From assembly GCA_016839515.1 (NCBI GenBank), contig JAEOUE010000130.1:1-15072 (forward strand): a stretch of 15,072 bases of DNA, given 5' to 3'. Both the position numbers and the translations under genes were made by a program. How positions within the stretch are numbered: the stretch's first letter is position 1; every line of letters begins with the position of its first letter. Origin of the DNA: Candidatus Hodarchaeum mangrovi (lineage in GTDB: Archaea; Asgardarchaeota; Heimdallarchaeia; Hodarchaeales; Hodarchaeaceae). A model generated the notes under the pieces. It was not told where the DNA came from, did no database searches, and was given only the letters and a program-made list of their open reading frames with translations. This document shows positions 385-15,072 of the stretch, in pieces.

Positions 385-860
385 TACACGGAAGTTTGTT
401 CTTTCTTTGAGAACAGGAATTATTTGCTACCTACTTTGGTGTAGGTTGCGGAAGTTTTTTCGAACCTTCTTTCCTGAAGATTGAATTGTTCCTTCATCAA
501 TTTGGATTGGACTTGTATGTTTCTCATTACGCTTCTGATCTTTTGTCTCTACGCTGTTTGGACGTCGGTCGAGTGGTTGATCATCTAAAAGAGTCTATCT
601 GTTTCCAGATTCCTGTCGCCAGGACGACCTCACCGTTGCCCAGTCCGATTTTCACCGCACTGCCCAGATTGTTTCTTTTTTTACTGGGGATTCCAGCTAC
701 GCTTGACCCACGTTTTAGGGATAACGTTTCCTAACCGCTGGTTGGCTGTGAGCCGTGTGCTGTCGCACAGGATTTAATTAATTAGTTCACCAGTCGTTTG
801 CTCACCCACACGCTGGTGGTTTAATCATTAGCGGGCCTCAGAAAGGGTCTTCTAAGCCCG
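385..860 (-). other. pre-rRNA 5' leader (external transcribed spacer), long and structured
   Basis: Lies between the TATA box (882-890) and the mature 16S 5' end. It is more GC-rich than 900-1400 and has many hairpins (832-860, 788-818, 753-771, 715-734, 641-662, 597-610, 429-446, 397-415). Confidence 0.7.
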
Positions 861-881
861 TATTTAGCTTATCTCAATCGC

Positions 882-899
882 TTATATAAATCTTACCTC
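882..899 (-). promoter_or_regulatory. archaeal BRE/TATA promoter of the rRNA transcription unit
   Basis: Minus strand reads GAGGTAAGA-TTTATATAA. About 31 nt from the first T is a C-G step (860/859) that starts a GC-rich hairpin, a plausible transcription start. Confidence 0.75.
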
Positions 900-1418
900 T
901 CGAACTTTTCACCTTATTTGGTTATTTGTTCGTTTTGTTTTTCTACGAGGGTTTTTTTTCGAATGAGCGCTTACCCTTTTTTTTGGGGGCAAACCTAGCT
1001 GCATCTTGAATGCCTTTTAAATTTTCATGAGTTGGTAGAGCTGGGTATTTTGTGTAATATCAATATTTTTGCTTTTCCTTCGTAAGGTCATTTTACTTTT
1101 TTCTCATAGCTTCGTATTTCTATCTTCAATACTTTTTCTGCGACTTTTTTTTGATTGCGTAACAGGCTTCAAGGTACTGGTAGGATTCTCTTTTTTTTAT
1201 TCCTCATTTCCCAAATGGTTTTTCAGTGCTTTCTTGTGACTAATCTCTCTTTTTGTCCTTTTTTTCTTCTTTTAGTCTTTTGATGTAATAATTTACTGTT
1301 CTAGATGAGACTCCTTCTTTCATTTCTATGGGGGGTGCTTTTTTGCGAAATTATGAGAAATAACTTGAAAAGATTTGGGCGAATAGTATTCCTTGGATAA
1401 GTGATATTGTCTTAATGA

Positions 1419-2405
1419 ATGTTTGGTGATAATTTGAACTCTTTTGATGTTATTGTGGTGGGTGGTGGTCCTGCAGGGTTATCCGCTGGTATTGTCGCCT
1501 CTATCAAGGGTTTGAAGACTGCAGTTTTTGAAGGGGGTAGTTGGGGTGGTTTATTAAGTACTATTTATCCCTATAAGAAAATTTACAATTATCCTGGAAC
1601 CCCTCGTATTCGTGCTGATCATCTTGTCTCCGAATGGGTTCGACAAGCTGCTGATCATGGTGTTTTGCTTATTAAAGAACGAATTGTTAGAATTCTCTCT
1701 AATTTACAGGTTGAGACTATTGACGGGCTTTCCTATTCTTCCAAAGCTATTATTATTGCGACTGGGATGACGCCTAATGAGCTTGGTGTTCCTGGTGAGA
1801 CTAAATTTTCCAAGAAGGATCGAGGGGTTTATCCTTATGTTACGGAACCTCGGATTTTTCGTGATGAGAATGTTCTTGTAGTTGGGGGTGGTGATACTGC
1901 TATTGATGCAGTTCTTGATCTTCAAAATATTGCCAAATCCATTTATTTGGTCCATCGTAAAGCGGAATTCCGTGCTTCCGAGACGAATCTGGCCAAGGTT
2001 AAATCAGAAAATATGGCTACTATTCTAACCAATATAAATCTTGTTGAAATTGGCGGGGGACAACGGGTTGAGTTTGCTATTCTTGAGGATGTAGTGACTC
2101 ATGAGCTTCGTCGGCTAGATGTCAGTAAAATTATCCTTGCTGTTGGGTTACGACCCAATACTGAGATTTTTTCCGATTTAGGGTTATCTTTTCGAGGTAA
2201 ATTTTTACAAGTTGATGATTTAATGCGTACTAATGTGGAGGGAATTTTTGCTGCTGGTGATATTGTTACTCCCTATCAATTAGCTGCAGTGGCTGCTGCT
2301 CAAGGAGCGTTAGCCGCCCATGGTGCCCATTTATTTATTAAAGATCCTTATTGGAAACAGGAACATCTTTCTGGTGAGGTTGAACCTTCTCGGCAAATCA
2401 TTTAA
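1419..2405 (+). CDS. TrxR-fold NAD(P)/FAD oxidoreductase, ferredoxin-NADP+ reductase (YumC-like) type
   Basis: FAD motif GGGPAG, YumC-like GGLLSTIYPYKKIY, NADPH motifs GGGDTA and HRKAEFRA, and TNVEGIFAAGD. The CxxC position reads YPYVTE and the protein contains no Cys. Confidence 0.88.
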   Translation: MFGDNLNSFDVIVVGGGPAGLSAGIVASIKGLKTAVFEGGSWGGLLSTIYPYKKIYNYPGTPRIRADHLVSEWVRQAADHGVLLIKERIVRILSNLQVETIDGLSYSSKAIIIATGMTPNELGVPGETKFSKKDRGVYPYVTEPRIFRDENVLVVGGGDTAIDAVLDLQNIAKSIYLVHRKAEFRASETNLAKVKSENMATILTNINLVEIGGGQRVEFAILEDVVTHELRRLDVSKIILAVGLRPNTEIFSDLGLSFRGKFLQVDDLMRTNVEGIFAAGDIVTPYQLAAVAAAQGALAAHGAHLFIKDPYWKQEHLSGEVEPSRQII

Positions 2406-2419
2406 TGGCTTTTTTTCCT
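2310..2419 (+). repeat. copy 1 of the repeated FNR 3' end (within the gene, plus stop and T-tract)
   Basis: By manual alignment 2311-2410 matches 6501-6600 at 92/100, and 2341-2400 matches 6531-6590 at 59/60. Confidence 0.97.
2410..2416 (+). terminator. oligo-T archaeal terminator
   Basis: T7 run 5 nt after the FNR stop codon. Confidence 0.5.
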
Positions 2420-2543
2420 CACAATATTATTTGAGTCATTGTTTTATAACCTTATAATTTTCATGAATTAGAATATAAATTAACGACCCAAAAAAATAGA
2501 ATAAAGATGGTTTAAATTCACATAATTCGAGTTGTGTAGCTAA

Positions 2544-3455
2544 ATGGATGGATTAGATCGACAAATCCTATTAGATCTTAGTGATAATTGTCGTGTTACG
2601 TATCAAGGAATGGCCCAAAAGCATAATGTTTCCGCTAATGCGATAAAAAAGCGTGTGATGAAATTACTGTCATTAGGTGTAATTGAAGGTTTTTTTGTTG
2701 AGTTAACTTACGCTATGATTGATGCAGAACCTTGCATGGCCATTGTGACAACTGATGGTACTGAAGATGAAAGTTTTATTGAAACGATAGGTAATAACCC
2801 TCTTGCTGGACCTATTGGAAAATTGACAGGGAGTATGTACAATATAATTGGTGTTTATCAAGGAAGTTCATCGTTAGCAGAATTAGGTTCTTCAATTAGG
2901 AATATACCTTGTGTTATCAATGTTGAACTACACCCCTTAATATTATTTAAAGGCAATAAAATAGATTTCTCTGTTACTGAGAAAAAAGTTCTCCAATATT
3001 TGGTATCAGATCCAAGAATGGCTATTAGTGAGGTTGCTAAAAAGTCTGGTCTTACCTCTAGAACGGTGCGTAATACTATTAATGAACTTATTAGTGGGAG
3101 CGGTGTTCATTTTGGTATACACATGAATCCTTCTGCAGGAACTGGGATAACAGTAATGATTAGAATCCATTGGGAAGAAAAGGCGATAAATGTAGGAGAA
3201 GTACTCACTTACCTTTCTAAAACTTTCCCTGAGGAGTTTTTTGTTCCTCTTCTGTCAGCAACAAATCCATTAGTGTTTGCCATCTTTTTAACTTCTGATT
3301 TAAGAAGAATACAGGAAATTAATCAAATCCTAAGACAAAAAACCGAATTCACAACAATCATAACTTATTTAGGAGAACCTGCACGTCTATTTCCTGATCT
3401 AAAACAACTTAGACTCAAAGAAATACTTTCTGAGGCTGGATTTCCAGCTAAATAA
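2544..3455 (+). CDS. Lrp/AsnC-family transcriptional regulator with two tandem wHTH units
   Basis: Two AsnC-type HTHs: DGLDRQILLDLSDNCRVTYQGMAQKHNVSANAIKKRVMKL and EKKVLQYLVSDPRMAISEVAKKSGLTSRTVRNTINEL. Each is followed by a RAM-sized domain. Confidence 0.9.
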   Translation: MDGLDRQILLDLSDNCRVTYQGMAQKHNVSANAIKKRVMKLLSLGVIEGFFVELTYAMIDAEPCMAIVTTDGTEDESFIETIGNNPLAGPIGKLTGSMYNIIGVYQGSSSLAELGSSIRNIPCVINVELHPLILFKGNKIDFSVTEKKVLQYLVSDPRMAISEVAKKSGLTSRTVRNTINELISGSGVHFGIHMNPSAGTGITVMIRIHWEEKAINVGEVLTYLSKTFPEEFFVPLLSATNPLVFAIFLTSDLRRIQEINQILRQKTEFTTIITYLGEPARLFPDLKQLRLKEILSEAGFPAK

Positions 3456-3830
3456 TATGAACCTTTTAGTTCGAAAATGTGCCTCAAATTCAGCTTATGA
3501 AGTTCAGTTTTCAGCTAACAAAAAATCAGCTAATAATGCATTCAAGCAAGTGAAAAATTGTTCCAACCATTGCGTAATTTGTACACTAGAAGTGTAACAT
3601 TTAGTTGCCTTTTTTAGATTCCAACTGTATATAGAACTTTTCTCTTTAAATTTTGGCAGATTTCTTTTCGATAATTTTAGCTCAAAATTGTCCTCAATAT
3701 TTCACTTTTTTGCACTAAAAGCGGATGAATACGTCCCAATTCTGAACATGCCTACTCCCAATACTATTAATTAGTAAAAAAGAATGATTTAGACGGTTGT
3801 AAAACCAAAGAATTAAAGAATTGATAAAAA

Positions 3831-4034
3831 ATGAGTGAAAAAGCAAATTGGTCTAAAATCCAGAATTATGTTTTGTTAGCACTTCCGCTGGCAATGGGAG
3901 TCTCAACAATCGTTTTAGCAATAGTATCCGCAGTACAAGGTACCCCACAACCAGATATGAGCTTAGTATTGGGATTAGGAATTTCTTGTTTAGCGATTTA
4001 TGGTTTAGATAAAGAAATAGATACCGAATCCTAA
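3831..4034 (+). CDS. small two-TM membrane protein, hypothetical
   Basis: ATG start, two hydrophobic segments (YVLLALPLAMGVSTIVLAIVSAV and MSLVLGLGISCLAIYGL), followed by a T-tract. Confidence 0.75.
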   Translation: MSEKANWSKIQNYVLLALPLAMGVSTIVLAIVSAVQGTPQPDMSLVLGLGISCLAIYGLDKEIDTES

Positions 4035-4094
4035 ACTAGGTTTTTTATCAGTTTTAAAGTGCAGTGACAATCAAAAACAAGGATTAAAAATGAA

Positions 4095-4502
4095 ATGGAC
4101 ATAATAAATCTTCAAGATCACTACTCTAAACTTAAAAAAGATCTCAATCAGTTTCAAAATGCATCAGGATCTCCAGATGAACTAACAAGGATGTTATTTT
4201 ATTCTGATTGGATTAGAATATTTTTTACAGGAAATACCTCAACGAAACAGATTTCTATTCAAGTTGAAGTCATAACTGCAAAGATCCCAACCCTGAAAGA
4301 TAATACCAAAATGCATCTTGTATTGGAAACACATATACATCATCTACACTACCTTTTACATCTTTTTGATAAAGGATTCACCCTTGATTTTATAGTTGAA
4401 GAAGGAATATGGTTTGCTGTAAAAAATATTTCAATCGAACCATCTCAACAACTTATGGAAGAGTTATTTCATTCTGAATATCAAGTCTTTAAGTGTGGTT
4501 AA
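4095..4502 (+). CDS. hypothetical protein
   Basis: 135-aa ORF with ATG start, co-oriented with and closely spaced to the ABC genes. No recognisable motif. Confidence 0.75.
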   Translation: MDIINLQDHYSKLKKDLNQFQNASGSPDELTRMLFYSDWIRIFFTGNTSTKQISIQVEVITAKIPTLKDNTKMHLVLETHIHHLHYLLHLFDKGFTLDFIVEEGIWFAVKNISIEPSQQLMEELFHSEYQVFKCG

Positions 4503-4548
4503 TTCAAATGATAGAAAAATAATGGATTGAAAAATGGAGATAATTTAA

Positions 4549-5289
4549 TTGAAGCAAAATGGAATAAAAGTAACTAATCTAGTTAAAAAATTTGGTGATT
4601 TACTAGCAGTAGATGATTTGAGTTTTGAAGTTAAATCAGGTGAGTTGTTTGGTTTGTTGGGACCAAATGGGGCTGGTAAATCTACTACGATCAATATTAT
4701 GACTGGGTTATTACACCAAACATCAGGTACAGCAATAATTGGAGGGTATGATGTTAGGAGTAATCCCCAGAAAATTCGGGAAATGATCGGTGTTTGTCCT
4801 CAAGAACCTGCATTTTATCCATATCTTACTGGTCGTGAAAATGTAGAGTTTTTTGGTAATCTTCATGGGATGCCAAAAGATTTATTGAAACAACGGACTG
4901 ACAAATTATTAGAATTGGTAGGTTTAGTTGAAGGTGCAACCCGGCAAGCTGGGAAATATAGTGGAGGGATGATTCGAAGGATAAGCTTGGTTATGGCTCT
5001 TATTAATGATCCTGAAATCGCATTCTTAGATGAACCAACTGTTGCCATGGATGTACAATCAAGAAGAGCTACTTGGGAATTTATTAAGGAATTAAAAAGT
5101 CAAGGAAAAACTGTTATATTAACAACCCATTACATTGAAGAAGCAGAATCACTTTGTGATAGGGTGGGTATAATTGATCATGGAACCTTGATTGCTCTTG
5201 ATACCCCACAAGCTTTAATGCAAGAATATGAAGCAAAGGACTTAGAAGAGGTCTTTATCAAAATTACGGGGCGAAAAATCAGAGAATAG
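4549..5289 (+). CDS. ABC exporter ATP-binding subunit (DrrA/NodI-like)
   Basis: Walker A GPNGAGKST, Q-loop, signature YSGGM, Walker B FLDEPT, H-loop TTHYIEEAE. TTG start with GGAG upstream. Confidence 0.95.
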   Translation: MKQNGIKVTNLVKKFGDLLAVDDLSFEVKSGELFGLLGPNGAGKSTTINIMTGLLHQTSGTAIIGGYDVRSNPQKIREMIGVCPQEPAFYPYLTGRENVEFFGNLHGMPKDLLKQRTDKLLELVGLVEGATRQAGKYSGGMIRRISLVMALINDPEIAFLDEPTVAMDVQSRRATWEFIKELKSQGKTVILTTHYIEEAESLCDRVGIIDHGTLIALDTPQALMQEYEAKDLEEVFIKITGRKIRE

Positions 5290-6443
5290 TGGTGAAAAAG
5301 ATGAAAATACAAAGAATTAATGCAATTGTTAAAAAAGATATGAAGAAACTCATAAGGGTTCCTGCGACTCTCTTTATGGCCCTTTTATTTCCACTTATAT
5401 TAACGGGTGCATTTGGATTCGCATTTGGAGGAGGAAGTGGCGTTGGAGATACTGTATACACCATTGGTATTGTTGATTTAGATAACTCGACATGGTCAAA
5501 TTTATTTATAGGAAACCTTTCTACAAGTGAAGTACTCATTAATATGCTTTATGATTCAAATAACACTGCTCAAGTTGATTTATCACAAGGAAAAATAGAT
5601 GCAATTATTATAATTCCCGATAATTTTGGAATTAGTCTGGATTCTTATTGGTTAAACCCATTAAATGCTAGTACATGGGAAAATTCTACCATCGGAGTGT
5701 TTGTTGATCAAGGGTCTCTGATAGTAAGTAATGCATTACCCCCATTGATTCAACGAATCCTTTTGATAACCCTGTATGGTGAACAGGCATTGACTGTTGC
5801 TCAACCTGTAACATTAGATAACCCATTAGGAGTTCAATCTTCACATAACACCCAGTTTGATTTTATGGCTCCAGGGATGTTTGCCTTTGCAGCTATCTTT
5901 CTAATCTTAATTGTCGCAGAAGGATTTACTGAGGAACGCACTGCTGGGATTCTAAGACGAATTCAATTAACCCCAACAACCTCAGCGGAGGTTATCACTG
6001 GTAGTACTATTGCTTATATGCTAACAGGGATAATCCAGATTTCTATTGTGTTCTTAGCTGCTGGGTTTATGGGATTTAATATCGGAACAGATCCAATTAG
6101 AATATTTTTCGCTTTTCTTATAGTATTATTACTAGTATTATGCAATGTAGGATTTGGATTAATTGCAGCAACATTGGCAAAAACCCCAGGAGCAACAACG
6201 GGAATTAGTTTCATATTCATTCTCCCTCAAATGTTTTTTGGAACGTTTGTACCGATATCTAGTGAGTTAATAAAACTAGTTCCAAGCTATTATGTTACAG
6301 ACGCCATAACCTCGATTTTTCTTCGAGGAGCAGAAATAACCAGTGAAATAGTCATTTTTGATTTCTTTGTTATGTTTGGTTATTGTATAGTCGTTGTTAT
6401 CGCTGGAATATTTATTTTTGCTAAATTCGGACGAGAAAAATAA
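5289..6443 (+). CDS. ABC-2 type exporter permease (true start may be 5292 or 5301)
   Basis: N-terminal TM, large extracytoplasmic loop, five C-terminal TMs, and the ABC-2 motif EERTAGILRRIQLTP. Abuts the ATPase stop. Confidence 0.92.
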   Translation: MVKKMKIQRINAIVKKDMKKLIRVPATLFMALLFPLILTGAFGFAFGGGSGVGDTVYTIGIVDLDNSTWSNLFIGNLSTSEVLINMLYDSNNTAQVDLSQGKIDAIIIIPDNFGISLDSYWLNPLNASTWENSTIGVFVDQGSLIVSNALPPLIQRILLITLYGEQALTVAQPVTLDNPLGVQSSHNTQFDFMAPGMFAFAAIFLILIVAEGFTEERTAGILRRIQLTPTTSAEVITGSTIAYMLTGIIQISIVFLAAGFMGFNIGTDPIRIFFAFLIVLLLVLCNVGFGLIAATLAKTPGATTGISFIFILPQMFFGTFVPISSELIKLVPSYYVTDAITSIFLRGAEITSEIVIFDFFVMFGYCIVVVIAGIFIFAKFGREK

Positions 6444-6452
6444 TTTTTCTCA

Positions 6453-6608
6453 TTTTTTTCTTTCTTCGTCTTATTGCTTAAATAATTATTACACCTAATT
6501 TAGCTGCCCTTGGTACTCACTTATTTATTTAAGATCCTTATTGGAAACAGGAACATCTTTCTGGTGAGGTTGAACCCTCTCGGCAAATCATTTAATGACT
6601 TTTTTCCT
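6453..6608 (+). repeat. copy 2: 48-nt AT-rich arm plus FNR 3'-end copy (attR-like)
   Basis: 6501-6600 matches gene 2311-2410 (8 mismatches, including AAA->TAA). 6453-6574 matches 12555-12676 (7 mismatches in 122). Confidence 0.97.
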
Positions 6609-6920
6609 TTATTCAGAATACTGTATAATCTACGTTAAATGACATTAAGGGGAAAAAAATTCCCACAAATAACAACGAATAACAGCGAGACATCAGACCT
6701 AAAATTCTTCTATAAATGATCTTATCTAAAATTGATTTGACCAACATTCAAATTAATATTCGTATTGAAGAATATTGTAGAATCAGTTTCTGGAAGGATT
6801 TCGCCATTTAACTGGTTTATGATTTTTTCACCAGAACCAGAAATAAGTTCAGAGGCATATGTGGGATTAAAGTCGAAAACAGTTTTTCATTGGCTATATG
6901 AATGAGTTCAAGAATATTTT

Positions 6921-6973
6921 TTTACCAAAAATAGTAAACTTTATATAATAGTTTACCAAAGATTGTAAACTAT
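6921..6973 (+). promoter_or_regulatory. TATA promoter flanked by two palindromic operators; probably leaderless
   Basis: TTTAC-N8-GTAAA (6921-6938), TTTATATA (6940-6947), and the perfect palindrome ATAGTTTAC-N8-GTAAACTAT (6948-6973) overlapping the ATG at 6972. Confidence 0.85.
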
Positions 6974-7439
6974 GTTTGCATATCCTCGTAAAGTGAAATA
7001 CCCCTCTAAAACACAAATCGATTTCTGGTCCCTTAACCGGAATCAATTCTCGGGAAGGGAAATTGCGGCAAAGAAAGATGTTACCCCTGGAATGGTCAGT
7101 AAAACGCTTTCTGAGGCTAATAACCGTGTTAAAGCATTGTTACAGAACGCAGCACGTATGAACAAGATCACTCTCAAAGTTATTAGTCCAGAGCTTGGGT
7201 ATGCACGCGGAACCAGTCATATATTTAACGTGAATGCCTATATCACGTTTTCCCCTGATAATGGTGTGCAAGTGTGGTACGATCATAAAGGAAGTTGTGT
7301 TCAATGTGAAAAATTTGCCTTCTGTCGCGATATTATTCTTCAGGAGTTTAAAGAAAGGAATATAGAGGTTGAAAATCCAAGTTTACGACCAACAGATTTA
7401 ATAGAGATATTACTCAATACTTTAGAGGAGATGCTTTAA
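6972..7439 (+). CDS. HTH transcriptional regulator with C-terminal Cys cluster
   Basis: HTH SGREIAAKKDVTPGMVSKTLSEA and C-terminal H-x3-CxxC-x5-C (HKGSCVQCEKFAFC). Confidence 0.8.
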   Translation: MFAYPRKVKYPSKTQIDFWSLNRNQFSGREIAAKKDVTPGMVSKTLSEANNRVKALLQNAARMNKITLKVISPELGYARGTSHIFNVNAYITFSPDNGVQVWYDHKGSCVQCEKFAFCRDIILQEFKERNIEVENPSLRPTDLIEILLNTLEEML

Positions 7440-7443
7440 AAAT

Positions 7444-10400
7444 ATGGAACTGGTGACTAAAAGAAGCACGGCTACTAAATTGGAGCCTATGTGTCTTGAA
7501 CATCCTCCAACTTCTAAAAAAATCGTACTGCCAAAAAAAGGACCTTTTGTAACTCTTGTAATCTTGTCAATATTTTTATTTAGTGTAATAAATGGGTCAG
7601 ATCAGTCTTCGATCAATCTGATCATCCCTCCAACAGATAGATCAGATTTAATTGGATATACAGCAAGAATCATTGATCTTGTCGCAACAAATGATGGGGG
7701 TCTAATATTTATCTATCGAACAGAAACCTGTGGAGGTATTGAGTATTTATTAGTAAAAACAAATAGTTCAGGTATGATTCAGTGGAAAAAATCTCTGATC
7801 GAAACTGGATCAGATTTGAACCTTTATCATATAATTCAAACTCTCGATGGATATGTTCTTGCTGGTGACAAAACTATCAAATACAGAAACTCGGAAATAT
7901 GTTTATTCAAAATCGATATGGAAGGTAACAAATTATGGGAGGTTATTTATAAAAATAATACGATTACCGAGATAATCCAATTAGAAGATGGAGGGTTTGC
8001 AATAGTTGGAAGAAATGGGGTAACAACAAGCTTGGGGTCAATTCCTATATTAATAAGAACTGATAAAAATGGAAATATGGTATGGAATCAGACTTTCAGT
8101 TCTTCCATTCAATTAAAGTCCTTAATTCAAATAGACGATGGATTTGTTCTCCTCGGTGGAAAACTTTCAGGATATAGAACTTACGCTGGAGGGGTTATTT
8201 TAATTAAGATAGATGAGGAAGGAAAAGTCCTTTGGAATAAAGATTACAATGAATTTGGACATCCAGGATATGTAGTAGCAAATAAGATTATTCAAACTGT
8301 AGATGGCATCATTTTCACTGGATTTGGGAAATGGACATCTACATATCAAATACTGATGATTAAAATTGATTCTGATGGGGAAGAAATCTGGAGAAGAGAA
8401 TTCGATTTATATGGACTTTTTGAGGAAGATCTGGATTTTCTTGATCAAATTCAAAACTTAATGCAAACTAAGAGCGGAGACTTGCTTTTTACTGGTTATC
8501 GCATGGCAGTACCTCTACGTACTCAGTTGATAAAAACTAACGACAATGGGACTATGCAATGGAATCAAAGTTATGTTGGCGTGTTCAGTAATTTAGTCGA
8601 AATGTCCGAGGGAAGTTATGCTCTTGCAGGCTATATTTCGATAGAGGGAACCACAGAGGCATGTGTAATCAATGTGGATAGAGATGGAACTGTACTATGG
8701 AGACGAGTCTACACAGGATCTGCTGTGGATGAGGACTGGGCAACAAGTGCAATACAGACTCAGGATGGAGGGTTCGCTTTTGCAGGCACTACTAGTTCTT
8801 ATGGGGCTGAAAAAACTGATATATGGCTTGTAAAAACTGACGCTTATGGACAAGTTGAATGGAATATAACTTTTGGGGCGGAGGGGGATGATGAGGCAAA
8901 TTATCTTTTCCAAACAGCCACGGGAGACTTTTTCCTAGTTGGATCTACCAAATCCCCGGGTTGGGTAGGGGATTGGTGGGGACCCACTAATAATTGGGAA
9001 ATCTTTATTGCAAAAGCAGATGCAACAGGCAATAGATTGTGGGAGAAGACCTACAAAGATTATCGGCCAGCGATATCTGGCCCGTACGCAGTTCAAACAT
9101 CGGATGGAGGAGTTGTTTGTGCGTGTATTTCGGATAGTGAAGGATTATGGCTAGCCAAAATTGATGGAAAAGGAGGGATTAAATGGGAGCAAACTTATAA
9201 CACTTGGCGTTGGGGTCGGTTTAAAGACAACTTATTCCAAGCAACTACTGATGGATTTATCATCGAAGGGGCTTTTGTCATGGGAGAAAAAACCATTGGT
9301 CCGAACGTATTTTCTGTACATGGAATATCAGCGATACAATTAGATTCCTACGGAAATATCTTATGGACTAAATTCCATAATAGTGAAACTAGCGAGTCTT
9401 TAGTCAAATTGGACGGACTCGGGAATATTGAATGGATCCAAAATTTTAGCAAAGTAACCAATTTCGTTTCCAACCTATTACGCTATGTTCAAAAAACTCC
9501 CGATAATGGCTTTATTTGCATCCTAGAAGAACATTATGATCCAATTCCAGCTGATCTTTTTGAACCAAATGAAGAGGAATATTACTATCTAGTGAAAGTA
9601 GATGCTCAAGGGATGATTACTTGGACAAAAAAATATCTATTTACTAAATTGAAAGCTGGACAGGGCATTGGTAATAAAATTTTAAATATGTACATAACCT
9701 TAGAAGGTGACTATCTCCTTATTCATGAAATTAATTTCGAATATCCTGAAATCCCTTTTTTCTTCTCCAATTTAATATTGGAGAAAGTGAATGCTCAAGG
9801 GGTCAGCCAATGGACTCAAACGTGGAATGGAACCTTATTCGAACCAGATTGGCGGGTACAATTATTTGATAAACATTCACCTATGGGTGGATATCCGTTA
9901 GCATTATTTCAATTGGAGGATGAAGATATTCTATTAGCAGGAGTTTTTACAACAGGAAGACTGTTCATTTCAAAAATTTCCTTGGAATTTGGGACTATCT
10001 TATGGAATCAAACATTACCTGAAGACTATTTAGGAGGTTTTAATGATCAGCTCAGTGAGCATTTTCTAGCCAAGTACAATCCATCCTTGATAGCAATTGG
10101 TGATTCATGGATAGTAAATATCCATCAGAATGGATCGCTTTTATGGAATTATTCCTTCTATCCTTTTCAGTTTTCCTCAGTAGTTCCAACTAATGATGAT
10201 GGATTTATCTTAGCGGGTCATGTATCAGCTATGCCAGGTCAGTATGGGGTCTCACGAGATGCTTTTGTTATGAAGCTCGATAAACATATGACAATTGAAT
10301 GGAGTCGCATTTATGGTTCGTCTAGTTCAGGAGTTTTTTGGAGCTATGAAATAGAGGAATCAACTCCTTCAAATGATTCTAATTTCGCTTCCTCGTTTCC

Positions 10401-10500
10401 TTTTCTATCTATTCTCTTGGTTCTTTGTGCTACGTCCTTTTATAAAAAAAAATCATCTTTCATGAATCGTTTTATTAAAAATCCACAGAAAGACAATTGA
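7444..10500 (+). CDS. large secreted multi-beta-propeller repeat protein with C-terminal membrane anchor
   Basis: N-terminal hydrophobic segment and many ~45-55-aa repeats (LxKxDxxGxxxW ... QTxDGGFxxxG). Ends in a Ser-rich linker, a TM (FPFLSILLVLCATSFY) and KKK. Start codon uncertain. Confidence 0.85.
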   Translation: MELVTKRSTATKLEPMCLEHPPTSKKIVLPKKGPFVTLVILSIFLFSVINGSDQSSINLIIPPTDRSDLIGYTARIIDLVATNDGGLIFIYRTETCGGIEYLLVKTNSSGMIQWKKSLIETGSDLNLYHIIQTLDGYVLAGDKTIKYRNSEICLFKIDMEGNKLWEVIYKNNTITEIIQLEDGGFAIVGRNGVTTSLGSIPILIRTDKNGNMVWNQTFSSSIQLKSLIQIDDGFVLLGGKLSGYRTYAGGVILIKIDEEGKVLWNKDYNEFGHPGYVVANKIIQTVDGIIFTGFGKWTSTYQILMIKIDSDGEEIWRREFDLYGLFEEDLDFLDQIQNLMQTKSGDLLFTGYRMAVPLRTQLIKTNDNGTMQWNQSYVGVFSNLVEMSEGSYALAGYISIEGTTEACVINVDRDGTVLWRRVYTGSAVDEDWATSAIQTQDGGFAFAGTTSSYGAEKTDIWLVKTDAYGQVEWNITFGAEGDDEANYLFQTATGDFFLVGSTKSPGWVGDWWGPTNNWEIFIAKADATGNRLWEKTYKDYRPAISGPYAVQTSDGGVVCACISDSEGLWLAKIDGKGGIKWEQTYNTWRWGRFKDNLFQATTDGFIIEGAFVMGEKTIGPNVFSVHGISAIQLDSYGNILWTKFHNSETSESLVKLDGLGNIEWIQNFSKVTNFVSNLLRYVQKTPDNGFICILEEHYDPIPADLFEPNEEEYYYLVKVDAQGMITWTKKYLFTKLKAGQGIGNKILNMYITLEGDYLLIHEINFEYPEIPFFFSNLILEKVNAQGVSQWTQTWNGTLFEPDWRVQLFDKHSPMGGYPLALFQLEDEDILLAGVFTTGRLFISKISLEFGTILWNQTLPEDYLGGFNDQLSEHFLAKYNPSLIAIGDSWIVNIHQNGSLLWNYSFYPFQFSSVVPTNDDGFILAGHVSAMPGQYGVSRDAFVMKLDKHMTIEWSRIYGSSSSGVFWSYEIEESTPSNDSNFASSFPFLSILLVLCATSFYKKKSSFMNRFIKNPQKDN

Positions 10501-10510
10501 GGAATTAAAA

Positions 10511-11866
10511 ATGAAAAGTACATTTAATACTGATACAATCAAAAAAATAGTTCTTTTACTAAGTTTTATTGGATTAATCCTAGGTTTCCAGAATTTGAAT
10601 AATTTTGCTGTAGGAGAACCGAATGGAAGAAATAACGTAAATTCTACGTCAACAATAATGTTCAATATGGAGTGGAATCAAACCTTTGGTGGATTAGCAA
10701 ATGACGGGGCAAGATCAATAATTGGTACAAGTGATGGGGGGTATGCCATTATCGGTTGGACCTATGGGTATATCAGTAATGAAGACATATGGCTAGTAAA
10801 AACGGACGCTAACGGTCAAGCACAGTGGAATACCACCTATGGAGGAATGAATACTGATAGTATTCGTCATCTTGCCACGGATACCCTGATTCAAACAGCT
10901 GATGGAGGATTTGTACTCTTCGGAGGCACTAAATCATATGGTGCGGGTGACAATGATTTCTGGCTAATAAAAACGGACGCTAACGGTCAAGTAGAATGGA
11001 ATACCACCTATGGAGGAGCACTTGCTGATTGGCCAGGATCGTTTATTCAAACAGCTGATGGGGGGTATGCCCTTACAGGAAATACTGATTCGTACGGTGC
11101 AGGTAATGTTGATGGCTGGTTGGTAAAAACGGACGTTAACGGTCAAGTAGAATGGAATACCACCTACGGAGGAACAGAATATGATAATTTATGGTCGGTT
11201 GTTCAAACAGCTGATGGGGGGTATGTCCTTGCAGGGAATACTGAGTCGTACGGTGCAGGTAATCGTGATGGCTGGTTGGTAAAAACGGACATTAACGGTC
11301 AAGCACAGTGGAATTATACTTACGGGGGAATAGAAACTGATTCCATTCCTTTCTTGATTCAGCTGGTTGATGGGGGTTATGTACTCGCGGGGAATACCGA
11401 ATATTATGGGCAAGCGGATTGGGGAGGCGCATGGCTACTGAAAATGGATGTTACTGGCCAAGTCCTGTGGAATTACACCTACGGGGGAAGAAATGTATTC
11501 TCATTGATCCAGACAGCTGACGGGGGATATGCCCTCACGGGGTATATTGCAATCGAAGGATCAGGGAAAGCAGAAGATTCTTGGTTGATAGATTGCTGGT
11601 TGATAAAGATAGACGCTAACGGTAAGATGGTTTGGGAAAAAATATTCGGTGGAAAAGAAATCGATGTCGGTAGTGATCTGCTCCAGGCTGCTGATGGAGA
11701 CCTAGTCATCGCAGGATGGACCGGTTCATACGGTGCAGGTAATAATGACATGTGGCTTTTGAAGACTGCTGATTCCCCGCCTCCTCCTGCTGCTCCGGGA
11801 TTGGAAGTCGTCCCACTGCTACTCGCTGTTTCAGTCCTGGTTTTCTGGCGTAGATGGAAAAAATAA
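10511..11866 (+). CDS. secreted 7-repeat beta-propeller surface protein with PGF-CTERM-like sorting signal
   Basis: Signal peptide, seven WNxT(Y/F)GG-type repeats, Pro linker, then APGLE + TM + RRWKK. Confidence 0.9.
   Translation: MKSTFNTDTIKKIVLLLSFIGLILGFQNLNNFAVGEPNGRNNVNSTSTIMFNMEWNQTFGGLANDGARSIIGTSDGGYAIIGWTYGYISNEDIWLVKTDANGQAQWNTTYGGMNTDSIRHLATDTLIQTADGGFVLFGGTKSYGAGDNDFWLIKTDANGQVEWNTTYGGALADWPGSFIQTADGGYALTGNTDSYGAGNVDGWLVKTDVNGQVEWNTTYGGTEYDNLWSVVQTADGGYVLAGNTESYGAGNRDGWLVKTDINGQAQWNYTYGGIETDSIPFLIQLVDGGYVLAGNTEYYGQADWGGAWLLKMDVTGQVLWNYTYGGRNVFSLIQTADGGYALTGYIAIEGSGKAEDSWLIDCWLIKIDANGKMVWEKIFGGKEIDVGSDLLQAADGDLVIAGWTGSYGAGNNDMWLLKTADSPPPPAAPGLEVVPLLLAVSVLVFWRRWKK
10788..11353 (+). 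repeat. intragenic tandem repeats, ~156-171 nt period
   Basis: Four occurrences of TAAAAACGGAC(G/A)(C/T)TAACGGTCAAG. 11046-11147 and 11202-11303 are identical at 95/102. Confidence 0.92.
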
Positions 11867-11867
11867 A

Positions 11868-12212
11868 AAAAATATCGATGGCGGTTATGCTATTGGAGCT
11901 GTAGGCAGTAGCGTTTGGAGTCCTTTATTAGTGAAAACGAATGTTAATGGTCAAAAAGAATGGGAAAAAGAATTTGGAGGAATGGATTCGGCCAAAGCAT
12001 TAGTCCAAACAACCGATGGTGGATATGTCATTACAGGGAATATAGATGGAGATGTGTGGTTATTCAAGATTACTCTATCGGAAATGACATCAACGACTCA
12101 ATCTGGACCAGGTTTTGAATATAACATCCTGATTCTCAGTATTAATCTCTTGTACATTGCACAGAAATGGAAACGAAGACATAAACTCGTCTTTCCCTCC
12201 TCTTTCTTATGA
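11868..12212 (+). pseudogene. orphan 3' fragment of a third beta-propeller paralog with intact PGFE anchor
   Basis: The frame is homologous upstream of the GTG (IDGGYAIGAVGSSVWSPLLVKTNVNGQKEWEKEFGG...GPGFE + TM + KWKRRHK). It starts mid-repeat right after the previous stop and has no signal peptide. Confidence 0.8.
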
Positions 12213-12239
12213 TCTGTCTTTGTTTTTATTATATTATAA

Positions 12240-12408
12240 GCGATCCTTATTAATCTTAATCAGGTTGCTCATGCCAAATATTATTTCCTACTATTTCGAG
12301 ACAGAATGAACAGTATACGAAAATCTATTTGATCATTTGCTATTTCAAAAGTGGTCTCTGATTGGGAGATCTGACCTTTAGGATTTTAAAAAAATTCTGA
12401 GTGAGCAT
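12240..12408 (-). pseudogene. probable decayed Lrp/AsnC HTH gene
   Basis: Minus-strand translation NDQIDFRILFILSRNSRK*YLA*AT*LRL fits the AsnC HTH pattern with three stops. The ATG at 12408 is out of frame across a homopolymer run. Confidence 0.45.
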
Positions 12409-12554
12409 TTATTGATTGAATGGTAGCTATAAATAAAAAGCATAAGATATATAACCAATAATGCTCGATTTGGGACCCCAAACAACTCACATTTTGATTA
12501 GCAAATTGTCTTACAACAATCTTTCATTAATTTTTATACTCTTAATTTTATGAC

Positions 12555-12676
12555 TTTTTTTCTTTCTTCGTCTCATTGCTTAAATAATTATTACATCTAA
12601 TTTTGTTGCCCTTGGTACTCATTTATTTATTTAAGATCCTTATTGAAAACAGGAACATCTTGCTGGTGAGGTTGAA
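12555..12676 (+). repeat. copy 3: AT-rich arm plus truncated FNR 3'-end copy
   Basis: 115/122 identical to 6453-6574, with an extra TGG->TGA. Similarity ends abruptly after GGTTGAA (12676). Confidence 0.96.
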
Positions 12677-12753
12677 TAATCGCTCCACGTAAGGTACAGA
12701 AAGAGCGCGGTGAGCGCACCACTAAGAAGCCCTCCATAAAATGCACCATCCAA
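12677..12753 (-). pseudogene. possible 5' fragment of a membrane-protein gene, cut off at repeat copy 3
   Basis: A TTG-started frame reads (M)DGAFYGGLLSGALTALFLYLTWSDY, one clean TM helix in locally GC-richer DNA, just downstream of a BRE-TATA. It then runs into the antisense of the repeat. Confidence 0.4.
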
Positions 12754-12811
12754 TGTTAAATTAATTAATAAATAACATTTTATATAAAAACTTTCGCCTA
12801 CCCAATGTTAA
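12750..12811 (-). promoter_or_regulatory. BRE-TATA promoter with operator-like repeats
   Basis: Minus strand CGAAAG-TTTTTATATAAAA (12796-12778). Inverted repeat AATGTTA-N14-TAACATT (12752-12779). Direct repeat CCAATGTTAA at 12750 and 12802. Confidence 0.65.
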
Positions 12812-13142
12812 TGAAGGCTTTTTATGCAAATTTTCTAAGATCATCCAGTTTGTAAGTTAAACAAAGTTACAGGCTATATTATGTATGTTCAGTTTTGGAT
12901 GTCAGATATTTCCACTCTGTTGATACCAATAATGTTGTAGTGTTACTGAAAATGTTAGATAGTGTCATACAGTAATTTAGGAGAGGTAAGTTACAAAAGG
13001 AACTTCTGTGACCCAAAATAGCCCCTTTTTCTACTCTATTGAAAATTTGAGTAAAAAATTCATTGAAAAGCTTTTTAGTTACTTCTTTCTAATTCTAGAG
13101 TATTGAAAAATCGGACAAAACAGATTAAAAAAGGTAAAATTA

Positions 13143-15072
13143 ATGGAAATAACAGAAGCTATTGAATTCTTCAAACAAGGACAATTAAAAAAGGCTTTAC
13201 AGGAACTAAATCAAGAAATAAAGAAATCAAATAGTAGTAAACTCCTGAAAGCTTTAATTCTTTATTATCAAGGACAATTTAAAGACGCCTATCAACTAGC
13301 GGACCGAGTACTTACTGAAGATCCTTCTAACATTGAATTGGAAGATGAATTCAAAGCTCATATTGTAAAGGTACATTCCAGTACTATTATTGCTCCTAGG
13401 AGAGATTCATTTACAGAGTTAAATACGGCTGAAAACTTGATTGAGGAATTACACCCAACATTTCTGGAAAGTGAGAAGATTTGGGTTGCAGAACTAAAAC
13501 TTATAAAAGGATTGCTCATTGAATTATTTTTTGGAGAAATAGATTTAGCCATAAATATTGAACATCAAGCATATGATCTTTTTACTGAAATTGGAGATTA
13601 TCGTGGAGCAGGTCGGGCACTGAACTTTATTAGTTGGATATATTTCTTTGAAGGCTTTTTAGAGGAATCTAAGAAATTCGCAGAGCAAGCTTTAGCTTTT
13701 TCTGAAAATGAAGGCATTAAAAGTGAATTAGTCTTTTCGTTAATTCGAATTGGGGACTATTATCTTTCTATAGGTAATCTTGAAGCTGCTCATAAAGCAA
13801 TACAGAAGGGAATCAATCTAATTCATGACACTGAAGCCAAATGGTTTGAGGGGGAGTTACGATTACTTCTGGGAAAGGTTTACTATCGTCAGGGAGAGTT
13901 TCAACAGAGTAAGGATGAATTTCAACATAGTATTCGATTAGCTGAGGAAATTGGTGACCAGCATCTTATGGCAAAAAGCATCCTTAACTTAGGAGATATT
14001 TTACTGATTAATGGGGATGTTCATGGAGCAATAGAAAAATTTCATCAAAGCTTCCGCATTTTTAGAGGATTAAAAGATTCAAATTGTTCTATTGATACTA
14101 ATTTAAAGCTGGGAAAAGCTTACATGCTTTTAAGGGAATTAAAATTGGCTTATCAACAATTTCAAAACAGTTTTACTCATCGTTTATGGAATAGGGTTGA
14201 TAATCAACCGACAAATGATATTCCTCTACACACTTTCGCTTATCCTGAAACTCTTTTTCAGCTTGTATTAGTCACCCTGGAATTAGAATTGATTAATCAA
14301 GCGAAGGAATACCTTGAGAGATTAGAAAAATTTCATGTGCGAGAAACTAATTCCCTCATTCGTTTTCAAACTAGATTAGCGAAAGCCTTGATTTTGAAAC
14401 GAAGTACACGACTCACTAGAAAAATAGAGGCTCAAAAAATCTTATATGAACTAGTAAATGAAAGAATGGTGGACCATAGCTTAACAGTTATTGCCATTCT
14501 GAATTATTGTGATATGCTAGTGGCTGAATTAAAATTTTCTGGGGAAGTAGAAGTTTTAAATGAAATTAACATCTTATTTCAAATGCTGATCGACTTAGGT
14601 CGGTCCAAGAATGCACCATTTGTTGAGATTGATGCTCTTCTCCTATGTTCTAAAGTGAGTTTAATTGAAGGAGATATTCGAAAAGCGAAGGCGTATCTTA
14701 CCCAAGCTCAAAATACTGCAGAAGATAAAGGACTTTCTTATTTATTATCAAAAATTATTCGGCAACAAGAGGCATTCGATAGTGAAGCAATCCAGTATTC
14801 TGATAAAACCCTTCTGAAGGAGCGACTTGAAGGAGTTCAACTTCAAGATTATATCGTTGAAACCCTGAAAGCAAGTTTTATTCAAGATCTAGGACGGCAA
14901 TTCTTTCCGATTTCGAGAATGGATCTCCAAGAAAAATACCAACTGATCTATCAAGACTATCTAAAAGAGCAAATTGATGCTCAGAAAAGTAAATATCGAG
15001 TGGGGATTGCTCAAATTGGCCTTTCAACACAACAGGATCTTCTTAGTGAATTCTATGAAGAATTTCACCCAG
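13143..15072 (+). CDS. TPR-repeat protein, probably fused to a C-terminal carbon-nitrogen hydrolase domain (partial, runs off the right edge)
   Basis: Open frame from ATG 13143 (MEITEAIEFFKQGQLKKA...) to the window end, 643 codons. It has ~40-aa TPR units (ALNFISWIYFFEG, SLIRIGDYYLSIG, LLLGKVYYRQG, SILNLGDILLING) and ends ...KYRVGIAQIGLS... The ORF track omits it because there is no stop. Confidence 0.88.
   Translation, partial: MEITEAIEFFKQGQLKKALQELNQEIKKSNSSKLLKALILYYQGQFKDAYQLADRVLTEDPSNIELEDEFKAHIVKVHSSTIIAPRRDSFTELNTAENLIEELHPTFLESEKIWVAELKLIKGLLIELFFGEIDLAINIEHQAYDLFTEIGDYRGAGRALNFISWIYFFEGFLEESKKFAEQALAFSENEGIKSELVFSLIRIGDYYLSIGNLEAAHKAIQKGINLIHDTEAKWFEGELRLLLGKVYYRQGEFQQSKDEFQHSIRLAEEIGDQHLMAKSILNLGDILLINGDVHGAIEKFHQSFRIFRGLKDSNCSIDTNLKLGKAYMLLRELKLAYQQFQNSFTHRLWNRVDNQPTNDIPLHTFAYPETLFQLVLVTLELELINQAKEYLERLEKFHVRETNSLIRFQTRLAKALILKRSTRLTRKIEAQKILYELVNERMVDHSLTVIAILNYCDMLVAELKFSGEVEVLNEINILFQMLIDLGRSKNAPFVEIDALLLCSKVSLIEGDIRKAKAYLTQAQNTAEDKGLSYLLSKIIRQQEAFDSEAIQYSDKTLLKERLEGVQLQDYIVETLKASFIQDLGRQFFPISRMDLQEKYQLIYQDYLKEQIDAQKSKYRVGIAQIGLSTQQDLLSEFYEEFHP

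Follow-up and report, generated by a model that had tools for sequence, protein, structure and literature searches.

Two of the three direct copies of a gene end found in a genome of Candidatus Hodarchaeum mangrovi are, with a probability that we put at roughly 0.55, dead fragments of a host gene, left as duplication and recombination scars in a rearrangement- and exchange-prone island beside the 16S rRNA promoter. The gene encodes a thioredoxin-reductase-like flavoprotein (FNR-like hereafter), and the copies of its 3′ end are separated by two blocks with wholly different gene content. No present function of the repeats has been demonstrated. The sequence-only reading had interpreted this arrangement as an array of integrase-less cassettes; that interpretation is weakly supported by our analysis, and the simpler alternative offered alongside it, decayed tandem duplication with turnover of the intervening content, fits the data better than a cassette mechanism.

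Layout of the window and support for its junctions

The window, that is, the whole stretch of DNA that was analysed, comprises positions 1–15,072 of the forward strand of contig JAEOUE010000130.1 (assembly GCA_016839515.1), a MAG of 348 contigs, 4.0 Mb and 91% completeness assigned to Archaea; Asgardarchaeota; Heimdallarchaeia; Hodarchaeales; Hodarchaeaceae (GTDB). Its features are as follows.

1–384, minus strand: 5′ end of the archaeal 16S rRNA gene (Rfam RF01959, 342 bits); the contig terminates inside the gene
to ~769: rRNA leader, as delimited by homology (1–769 matches relatives at 72–77%)
1419–2405, plus strand: FNR-like gene, 328 aa (Pfam Pyr_redox_2, E 8.5e-41)
2310–2432, plus strand: copy 1, the functional gene end (2310–2405) with its native downstream flank
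2529–6461, plus strand: core of block 1, Lrp-ABC (Pfam; comparison with the relative G011)
2544–3455, plus strand: block 1, double-wHTH AsnC/Lrp-type regulator (Pfam)
3831–4034 and 4095–4502, plus strand: block 1, two small ORFs
4549–5289, plus strand: block 1, ABC ATPase (Pfam)
5289–6443, plus strand: block 1, ABC-2 permease (Pfam)
6441–6499, plus strand: arm of copy 2, the T-rich terminator region that natively follows the ABC operon (3′ flank)
6500–6614, plus strand: copy 2, pseudo gene end including the stop-codon position and ~10 nt beyond
6972–12212, plus strand: block 2 (ORF translations, Pfam)
6972–7439, plus strand: block 2, 155-aa HTH-like/Cys-motif protein (Pfam PCYCGC, 25.3 bits against a 25-bit cut-off)
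7444–10500, plus strand: block 2, 1018-aa repeat-rich membrane-anchored protein
10511–11866, plus strand: block 2, 451-aa repeat-rich membrane-anchored protein
11931–12212, plus strand: block 2, 93-aa one-repeat remnant
12543–12601, plus strand: arm of copy 3, duplicating the ABC-operon flank but lacking an ABC gene upstream
12602–12676, plus strand: copy 3, pseudo gene end truncated after 75 nt
12677–12812, minus strand: breakpoint neighbour, with a promoter-like module (12748–12812) and then the start of a short, G+C-richer ORF

The gene content proposed from the sequence alone for each unit, an Lrp regulator with an ABC exporter and an HTH-like protein with membrane-anchored, surface-type proteins, was borne out by Pfam and the translations, with no Pfam family found for the large repeat-rich proteins of block 2. 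Next to the breakpoint, the start of the minus-strand ORF runs antisense into copy 3; no fold signal was found in 12677–12812, and the promoter-like module has 83–86% matches in four relatives (G007, G009, G011 and G014).

The layout is identical across Logan contigs from four runs of three studies; one of these runs may be the source sample of the window itself. The passage from the gene end into block 1 is bridged by X1 record 2 (2378–5151) and X4 record 27 (2341–3698), that from the ABC end through the arm into copy 2 by X2 record 19 (3967–6560) and X4 record 28 (5172–6502), that from copy 2 into block 2 by X2 record 20 (6568–7535), and copy 3 with both flanks by X1 record 7 (12209–13344) and X2 record 24 (12389–14938). 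The notion that the repeats are chimeric joins of a metagenome assembly, to which the fragmentation of the MAG and the breaks inside the repeats in contigs of other runs might lend some colour, is hardly credible, given that contigs from at least two further studies bridge each junction and that the copies differ by 6–9%, as expected of distinct loci. No well-supported skipping or circular joint was seen in the contigs of the four runs, from which rare excised or empty forms would escape; the lone joint skipping across the blocks (6454 to 12373) has a side of 20 nt and lies in a contig of different depth.

Three copies of one gene end

The last ~106 nt of the FNR-like gene are repeated at 6500–6605 and, in shortened form, at 12602–12676. 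A repeat search confirmed the three same-strand copies described from the sequence alone, with start-to-start spacings of 4190 and 6102 nt. Copy 2 is 94% identical to copy 3 over 122 nt (6453–6574 and 12555–12676, E 9e-49) and 92% identical to the gene end over 106 nt (6500–6605 and 2310–2415, E 8e-39), by both BLAST and alignment. When the repeat was compared with the whole MAG, it proved to be real and unique to the window contig, the next best of the 40 matches listed having an E value of 0.05. Likewise, among the 29 same-contig repeat pairs kept in a self-BLAST of the MAG (60–600 nt long, 0.5–40 kb apart), only the three pairs of the window contig exceed 90% identity, the next pair reaching 87.7%. 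The homology between copies 2 and 3 is confined to 122–134 nt, with nothing more in common on either side, and neither blastn nor tblastx detected additional similarity, be it between the blocks or between their flanks. Given that copies 2 and 3 are 91–92% identical to the host gene end, compared with 74–78% to the gene ends of other species, they arose within the host lineage.

Both distal copies are degenerate. Copy 2 carries H to L, A to T and K to stop changes; copy 3 shares these three disabling changes, adds W to stop and S to A, and ends at 12676, 30 nt short of the stop-codon position, where it gives way to unrelated DNA. Altogether, five changes relative to copy 1 are common to copies 2 and 3, each of which also has private changes; three of the five create a stop or strike residues apparently conserved in relatives. 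None of the five is more than 31 nt from the junction (p ~0.02, two-ended permutation test), a clustering compatible with error-prone junction repair or with gene conversion that later affected the rest. Copy 2 preserves its final 21 codons apart from a single synonymous difference, as though selection still acted on them. The copies are mosaic: they have an identical 44-nt core, their left part has diverged, and their right part agrees fully with the gene.

The native end and the shared upstream arm

The FNR-like gene is the sole copy in the MAG and apparently intact, with a TIGR01292 score of 223 bits (cut-off, 343 bits) and no CxxC seen in the translation. Its orthologues, at 70–73% amino acid identity, align to the last residue, and copy 1 is full length, as in 10 of 10 orthologues. 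Downstream of it, 2407–2432 matches the orthologue flank in G002/G013 (score 28 vs 14.4, sd 2.0, for shuffles) as well as the flank of the G004 orthologue, and behind copies 2 and 3 the corresponding positions do no better than shuffles; beyond ~15 nt, the sequence to the right of copy 1 is unrelated to that to the right of copy 2. By sequence comparison, then, copy 1 is the functional, native gene end. Integrative elements with gene 3′ ends as their targets reconstitute the gene, place the displaced end at attR and can stack in tandem, and the sequence-only reading had appealed to such elements; here, however, the native flank accompanies copy 1 and not the distal copies.

The 48-nt upstream arm that the same reading had attributed to copies 2 and 3, and found missing at the gene, is present as described (6453–6500 vs 12555–12602, 46 of 48 positions identical); the similarity spans 48–60 nt, and the left arms are 96% identical. 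The first 21 nt of the arm of copy 2 are also present in G011. Over its full length, the arm can be aligned with the sequence that follows the orthologous ABC permease gene in G002/G013, with a score of 28 attained by 3 of 409 control flanks and, with a span of at least 50 nt, by 1 of 409; this is one gapped alignment to two closely related relatives, with an empirical p of ~0.002–0.007. The arm is therefore the ordinary, native flank of the ABC operon, its junction with the gene end is a rearrangement junction, and copy 3 derives from copy 2; blastn and tblastx detected no vestige of block 1 ahead of the arm of copy 3.

Hypervariability and gene exchange

The region beside the rRNA leader contains largely different genes in the 10 relatives examined. 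Homologues of both blocks nevertheless neighbour the leader, or the same conserved genes, in some relatives: an Lrp-ABC homologue lies 7.5 kb from the leader in G009, another is found on contig C27 of G002 together with C187-like genes, and the homologous trio of block 2 (PCYCGC) adjoins the leader in G002 (contig C88) and partly in G018 (contig C10), in the opposite orientation. The comparison of this locus across relatives that had been proposed as a check thus revealed largely different genes in a hypervariable region, and no arm-plus-gene-end boundary in 21 congeners.

Block 1 shows a separate signature of exchange. Positions 2529–6461 align with contig C38 of G011 over 3933 nt without gaps, with 189 mismatches (95% identity), whereas 40 kb of control DNA is 63–82% identical to that genome (~70%), so that the gene exchange is real. 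The identity is ~99% over 2529–5128 (2.6 kb) and ~87% over 5129–6461, with a sharp shift at ~5128. These sequence comparisons indicate recent recombination by which another species either supplied or received part of block 1. The G011 copy has no flanking repeats, and the homology stops at the operon borders. Of the accretion hotspot previously suggested beside the rRNA promoter, then, the hypervariability and the exchange of block 1 are supported, and the integrative mechanism is not.

A probable origin by rearrangement

Tandem or segmental duplication and unequal crossing-over can leave pseudogene fragments. In the scenario that we favour, the gene, with ~30 nt of its native downstream flank, would first have been placed upstream of the Lrp-ABC operon. 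A duplication of the unit 2310–6499 could then have produced the junction between operon flank and gene end, the outcome of which is seen at copy 2, and most of the second unit would have been lost, leaving only that copy. A second duplication, of a unit spanning ~6453–12554, may have put the flank and gene end at 12555, and a later deletion would have clipped copy 3 at 12676, together with the start of the neighbouring minus-strand ORF. Equivalent routes would be a tandem duplication with subsequent deletion, unequal crossing-over of the repeats, or insertion by a single crossover within the ~110-nt homology, and a dedicated site-specific recombinase would be unnecessary for the repeat geometry.

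Consistent with such scars, the fragments are degenerate pieces of a gene of this very lineage, and the novel junctions join two resident chromosomal stretches; like other pseudogene fragments left by duplication, they are partial, in direct orientation and restricted to one lineage, with junctions of native flank. Conversely, blastn and tblastx found no remnants of the duplicated units beyond the short repeat. Unlike typical duplication scars, two successive events are involved, the remnants amount to only 75–115 nt, and the intervening blocks are wholly different, so that extra steps of loss or replacement are needed; two independent duplications, each followed by the loss of almost the entire second unit, make four events, which is not parsimonious.

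Several observations run against duplication scars: no second-copy remnant of block 1 or block 2 survives, the mosaic pattern is equally expected from a crossover in an att-like core, the tail of copy 2 is intact, and block 1 is transferable between species.

Alternative explanations

The foremost alternative, though an unlikely one, is that the repeats are relic att sites and the blocks decayed CIME-like elements that lost their integrase after insertion, stacked in tandem, at the 3′ end of the FNR-like gene. The direct-orientation series of gene end, block, gene end, block, gene end, with three copies of the target 3′ end at 91–94% identity, has the expected geometry; the mosaic copies with their identical 44-nt core are as left by a crossover inside an att-like core; and the intact coding tail of copy 2, the interspecies movement of block 1 and the hypervariability of the region are all compatible with it. 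Integrated elements of archaea can lose their integrase and can lie in tandem, according to a review (PMC8371274). However, the repeats do not have sibling arms on both sides: the left arms are ordinary ABC-operon flank, and the right flanks of copies 1 and 2 are unrelated past ~15 nt despite the 96% identical left arms. Furthermore, the native downstream flank lies behind copy 1 rather than the distal copy, copy 3 is truncated with unrelated DNA beyond, and block 1 of G011 lacks flanking repeats, its homology stopping at the operon borders. Nor do the recombinases fit well. As had been noted, the window encodes none (Pfam, 10 ORFs scanned), and the search of the MAG recovered one tyrosine-type gene (PF00589), which scores 278 bits with the XerA model, above its cut-off of 220 bits, and no serine type (PF00239), an absence not proven by a 91%-complete MAG. 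Finally, the arm-plus-gene-end junction occurs in 0 of 21 other genomes of the genus and yields 0 matches in exact-pattern scans of the metagenome_contigs, viral_contigs and genome_contigs collections.

It is rather improbable that incoming DNA carrying the gene end, from a sister strain or a circularised donor, was inserted by host homologous recombination through the ~110-nt homology (Campbell type). Such insertion would yield the same geometry and the same mosaic crossover signature, and interspecies recombination is evident from the switch from 99% to 87% within block 1. An archaeal integrase, Int-pTN3, recombined identical segments down to 104 bp (PMC8371274). However, the donors must already have joined the ABC flank to the gene end, which merely shifts the origin of the junction, the donor arrangement is in no genome or collection searched, and the Logan contigs hold no well-supported alternative joints. 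On this account, direct repeats arise without a site-specific enzyme, and the three repeats could now shuffle the blocks.

We consider it doubtful that the copies are, or recently were, active recombination sites of a cassette system without an integrase, in which multi-gene blocks, bounded by a core of 44–75 nt from the 3′ end of a housekeeping gene, would be looped out and put back by XerA, by the homologous-recombination machinery of the host or by a recombinase on an unbinned element. Such a system would account for the near-identical block 1 in another species. Yet the proposal that non-autonomous cassettes were mobilised in trans is not supported, XerA being the sole tyrosine recombinase found in the MAG, the shared arm being operon flank, and the junction being absent from the 21 congeners.

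A functional role for the repeats, with arm and gene end serving as a reused terminator plus promoter or small-RNA module selected at operon borders, is very improbable: the arm has a T-run and a TATA-like TTAAATAA, and a 9-nt inverted repeat (CTTAAATAA / TTATTTAAG) is found only in copies 2 and 3, but folding arm plus gene end as DNA yields no signal for either strand (z −0.6 to +1.2), there is no Rfam match, the module is conserved in 0 of 21 congeners, the downstream genes have their own promoter-like boxes near their starts, and the copies have diverged by ~5–6% from one another.

Comparison with known systems

The islands related to ICESt1 at the 3′ end of fda in Streptococcus thermophilus reportedly exemplify tandem accretion. 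As in tandem accretion of CIMEs, direct repeats of the 3′ end of a protein gene separate integrase-less tandem blocks at the locus described here. CIME repeats, by contrast, correspond to attL/attR of a known integrase family, have the displaced native end on the distal side and come with related ICEs; at the present locus, which belongs to an archaeon, copy 1 retains the native flank, the arm consists of operon flank, and neither an integrase nor, in the genomes and collections searched, a related element was found. CIMEs are defined as cis-mobilizable elements (PMC5704250). In archaeal integrated elements, direct repeats likewise result from integration; several elements may stack at a single site, and the integrase may be lost (PMC8371274). 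The Asgard elements described in two reports (PMC8813620, PMC11529989) are inserted at tRNA genes or at an 11-bp motif and carry genes for integrases or for replication/partition. The blocks described here carry none of these, and their homologues in relatives are chromosomal neighbours of the rRNA operon.

The locus resembles integron gene cassettes in that cargo units are arrayed with a similar boundary sequence behind each, and in that the G011 homology of block 1 ends tightly at the operon borders. It differs in that no attC-like folded site (the z scores given above), no adjacent integron integrase and no attI are present, in that each unit comprises several genes with intergenic regions between them, and in that a fragment of a host gene forms the boundary. 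A survey of Thaumarchaeota is said to be a further source on integrated mobile elements of archaea.

If the cassette-array reading, which we do not favour, were true, this would be, to our knowledge, the first integrase-less, gene-end-bounded cassette array in archaea. The ordinary reading involves no new mechanism and, if it holds, provides an example of rRNA-adjacent turnover in Asgard archaea of the Hod/Heimdall group by duplication, deletion and interspecies recombination. The 99% identity over 2.6 kb between species that are otherwise ~70% identical is useful for studies of the pangenome and gene flow of the archaea closest to eukaryotes.

Three copies of one gene end

The 3′ end of the FNR-like gene is present in three copies on one strand of the window, spaced 4190 and 6102 nt apart, and we favour reading this feature, which is real, as one of an ordinary kind, namely, duplication scars in a variable, exchange-prone island. 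Copy 1 is the functional end of the gene itself, whereas copies 2 and 3 close off the Lrp-ABC operon (block 1) and a group of PCYCGC/HTH-like and repeat-rich proteins (block 2), respectively.

Features of the window (coordinates, strand, description)
1-384, minus: 16S rRNA gene, 5′ end (rRNA search)
1419-2405, plus: FNR-like gene; thioredoxin-reductase-like flavoprotein, 328 aa (Pyr_redox_2, E 8.5e-41)
2544-3455, plus: regulator, 303 aa, with two AsnC-type winged HTH domains
between regulator and ABC ATPase, plus: two small ORFs
4549-5289, plus: ABC ATPase
5289-6443, plus: ABC-2 permease
6972-7439, plus: HTH-like/Cys-motif protein, 155 aa (PCYCGC at the Pfam threshold)
7444-10500 and 10511-11866, plus: two repeat-rich proteins, 1018 and 451 aa, with hydrophobic anchors at the N- and C-termini
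11931-12212, plus: apparent one-repeat remnant, 93 aa
13143 onward, plus: TPR protein, running off the contig

The FNR-like protein scores under the TrxB equivalog cut-off, and a CxxC motif was not seen in its translation.

Copy 2 (6500-6605) and copy 3 (12602-12676) are 92% and 91% identical, respectively, to the gene end (2310-2415), and 94% identical to each other over 122 nt, a span that includes the arm, i.e., the 48-60 nt that precede the gene-end sequence in these two copies and are missing from the gene. The sequence-only reading had reported the same-orientation recurrence at these spacings, which is borne out by a repeat search, BLAST and bridging contigs, as well as a 48-nt arm shared by copies 2 and 3, in which 46 of 48 positions are indeed identical (6453-6500 versus 12555-12602). 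In BLAST against the whole MAG (4.0 Mb in 348 contigs, 91% complete and 6% contaminated, with the window as one entire contig), copy-to-copy E-values are at most 1e-39, the next best match has an E-value of 0.05, and no further copies were found elsewhere. A self-BLAST of the MAG gave 29 short repeat pairs within single contigs, of which only the three copy pairs exceed 90% identity.

Origin of the copies and of the arm

Copy 1 matches ten orthologues of the genus in the length of the C-terminus and in ending with RQI[LIV] before the stop codon. Copies 2 and 3 have in common five changes relative to copy 1, including H to L, A to T and K to stop, the first two of which strike residues seemingly conserved in the ten relatives (as judged by eye, not tallied); copy 3 additionally carries W to stop and S to A. 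With these disabling changes in common, and with 91-92% identity to the host gene against only 74-78% to the gene ends of other species, copies 2 and 3 must be degenerate pieces of the gene of this very lineage, both derived from a single arm/gene-end junction. All five shared changes lie within the first 31 of 75 nt, on the junction side (two-ended permutation p ~0.02), and over the remaining part the copies still matched the gene exactly at the time of their separation from each other. Such a mosaic fits a crossover in the core, later gene conversion, or error-prone repair beside a breakpoint, and discriminates only weakly among them.

The first 21 nt of the arm fall in a stretch shared with G011, another genome of the genus, past the stop codon of the ABC permease, and the arm can be aligned over its full length with the DNA 3′ of the orthologous permease gene in the congeners G002 and G013, with a score that 3 of 409 control flanks of genes in the genus reach, one of them with a span of at least 50 nt. 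On these alignments the arm belongs to the ABC operon as its native 3′ flank, and the arm/gene-end boundary is a rearrangement junction of two resident sequences. In front of copy 3 the arm stands without any ABC gene or trace of one, and this copy was in all likelihood made from copy 2. We also considered copies 2 and 3 as internal-deletion derivatives of a whole upstream-plus-gene unit, given that the arm resembles 1250-1293, 5′ of the gene (37/45 in a gapped alignment; BLAST 80% over 45 columns, E 0.011 genome-wide, the tied second-best non-self match of the arm in the genome). This likeness is T-rich, has similarly scoring counterparts elsewhere and is possibly due to low complexity alone, and the unproven proposal was dropped.

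A proposed duplication history and its rivals

We assign a probability of about 0.55 to the family of explanations in which the copies are duplication scars in a rearrangement-prone region. Under this history, the FNR-like gene with ~30 nt of its flank would first have moved to a place 5′ of the Lrp-ABC operon; a duplication of the unit 2310-6499 would have made the ABC-flank/gene-end junction, most of the second unit then being lost; a second duplication, of the unit ~6453-12554, would have made copy 3; and a deletion would have clipped copy 3 at 12676 along with the start of a minus-strand ORF, the promoter-like module of which would survive at 12748-12812. The weak point here is that about four events are required, and the same picture would result from unequal crossing-over, or from insertion by a single crossover, through the repeat.

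The sequence-only reading had instead proposed integrative elements that target the gene 3′ end and leave the displaced end at attR. The classic att model would have the native gene end, together with its native flank, moved to the distal end of the array. In the window, the native flank follows copy 1: the sequence right after it, 2407-2432, matches the orthologue flank in G002 and G013 with a score of 28 (300 shuffles: mean 14.4, sd 2.0, max 24), and also that in the congener G004, whereas the sequences 3′ of copies 2 and 3 score no better than shuffles against any of the four relatives tested. Together with the operon origin of the arm, this arrangement speaks against the proposal. Copy 3 is cut 30 nt short of the stop position and abuts unrelated DNA, and to the right of copies 1 and 2 the flanks show no relationship past ~15 nt, a divergence that would not be expected of sibling elements with 96%-identical left arms. 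The gene-end part is matched in 7 of 21 other genomes of the genus, and in 4 of these 7 the match coordinates coincide with the 3′ end of the orthologue; the other congener matches are short T-rich pieces of the arm, and the arm is joined to the gene end in none of the 21. Exact-match scans of metagenome, viral and genome contig collections, from which records near the window's genome may be excluded, returned neither the arm/gene-end junction nor the gene-end core.

The earlier observation that the window carries no recombinase holds for the 10 ORFs scanned. Genome-wide, one tyrosine recombinase does exist, the single PF00589 match of the MAG being a protein of 296 aa that scores above the cut-off of the archaeal XerA model, and no serine recombinase (PF00239) was found in the 91% of the genome that is represented; mobile elements, however, often go unbinned. 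A minus-strand remnant peptide at 1243-1368, which matches HTH_24 only below threshold (E 0.0022) and has no paralogue in the MAG, was ruled out as a recombinase remnant. Contigs of four runs, which would miss rare forms, contain no well-supported joint that skips or circularizes a block. The only block-crossing joint listed, 6454 to 12373 in run X2, is a single contig with a 20-nt side, a depth of 24.8 against ~11 for this organism, and unrelated loose ends at 6434 and 12392, and was judged a low-complexity match from another organism. The Asgard mobile elements described in PMC8813620 and PMC11529989 use tRNA genes or an 11-bp motif as insertion sites, and what they encode includes integrases, partition genes or giant genes; archaeal integrated elements may be stacked in tandem and may be without their integrase (PMC8371274). 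The window has the bare repeat geometry in common with such elements, and none of their defining features beyond it was found in the sequences and contigs compared; we consider it rather unlikely that the copies are relic att sites of decayed integrative elements, CIME-like in the sense of PMC5704250.

Somewhat more doubtful still is a homology-driven insertion of foreign DNA, which the crossover picture would accommodate. A functional regulatory role of the repeat is very improbable; there is no single-strand fold signal in the repeat or in the G+C-richer stretch after copy 3, and the non-coding stretches match no Rfam family at E<=1. Finally, every junction is bridged by contigs from runs of three studies (one run may be the source sample), so that an assembly error is hardly credible.

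Interspecies exchange of the Lrp-ABC operon

The interspecies transfer of block 1 is a by-product of this analysis that is more solid and more interesting than the repeats themselves. Window positions 2529-6461 align with contig C38 of G011 over 3933 nt without gaps and with 189 mismatches; identity is ~99% from the regulator to the ABC ATPase (2529-5128), including a mismatch-free run of more than 600 nt, and ~87% in the permease (5129-6461), although the other DNA of the two species is only ~65-73% identical. The FNR-like genes of the two genomes are 68% identical in nucleotides and 73% in amino acids, 15 of the 18 ORFs around the G011 gene match the MAG at 31-91% amino acid identity (median ~69%), and in a control of 40 kb, taken from two further contigs and compared with G011, G017 and G002, all listed matches are at 63-82%, except one 30-nt match at 93%. 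Homology to G011 stops 15 nt before the regulator start codon and 18 nt past the permease stop, and no direct repeats flank block 1 in G011. Judging from these identities, block 1 looks like an operon replaced or transferred by recombination, with two layers that differ in age; the exchange does not look like movement of a repeat-bounded unit.

A variable neighbourhood beside the rRNA leader

The rRNA leader is recognizable in relatives as far as ~769. The FNR-like gene is the newcomer at this locus: leader and orthologue lie apart in all 7 relatives with both matches, either on different contigs or, in the single-contig genome G009, 1.6 Mb from each other. Orthologue neighbourhoods show two or three arrangements among the six compared by ORF content; G002 and G004 have a convergent-gene context in common, with which the window shares the flank remnant. 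Upstream of the FNR-like gene, the sequence is not significantly similar to the corresponding regions of five orthologues, and relatives have no counterpart of the T-rich (plus strand) spacer at 900-1418, which separates the gene from the rRNA promoter region.

Gene content at the leader flank differs widely among the 10 relatives compared there, and homologues of both blocks are found near the leader in some relatives. In G009 the Lrp-ABC operon is 7.5 kb away from the leader and oppositely oriented, and in G002 it is on the same contig as genes that flank the rRNA operon in G009. The PCYCGC/large-protein trio adjoins the leader in G002 (contig C88) and, in part, in G018 (contig C10), again in the opposite orientation, and a TPR gene with the same promoter-like module is 3.4 kb from the leader in G007. 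The region is a hypervariable stretch of chromosome, but the genes of both blocks are residents of the neighbourhood and not imported cargo. The XerA gene is on contig C187 of the MAG (5162-6052); since genes of this contig are neighbours of the rRNA operon in G009, XerA may lie at a short physical distance from the window.

The two surface-type proteins of block 2, which match no Pfam or NCBIfam family, consist of ~52-aa repeats (W-L-x-K-T-D-x-x-G-x-x-x-W-N-x-T-Y-G-G), with five 156-nt DNA repeats at 10790-11507; a paralogous pair, PCYCGC plus a large protein, is on contig C202 of the MAG. The 93-aa ORF comprises one repeat unit and a PGF...hydrophobic...KWKRR tail, which we take to be a candidate PGF-CTERM-like sorting signal, and looks like the 3′ remnant of another surface-protein gene. 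Beyond it, a ~50-nt stretch (12227-12277) recurs at 87-94% identity in three congeners (G007:C53, G003:C49, G011:C31). A TATA-like box inside the perfect palindrome GTAAAC-TTTATATAAT-AGTTTAC (6934-6956), 16 nt 5′ of the start codon of the 155-aa HTH-like protein, is likely an operator/promoter for autoregulation of this protein. The promoter-like module at 12748-12812 (minus strand) consists of a BRE/TATA-like AAAGTTTTTATATAAAA flanked by AACATTGG direct repeats and recurs at 83-86% identity at several loci of G007, G009, G011 and G014, including, on contig C9 of G007, a position just 5′ of the TPR gene.
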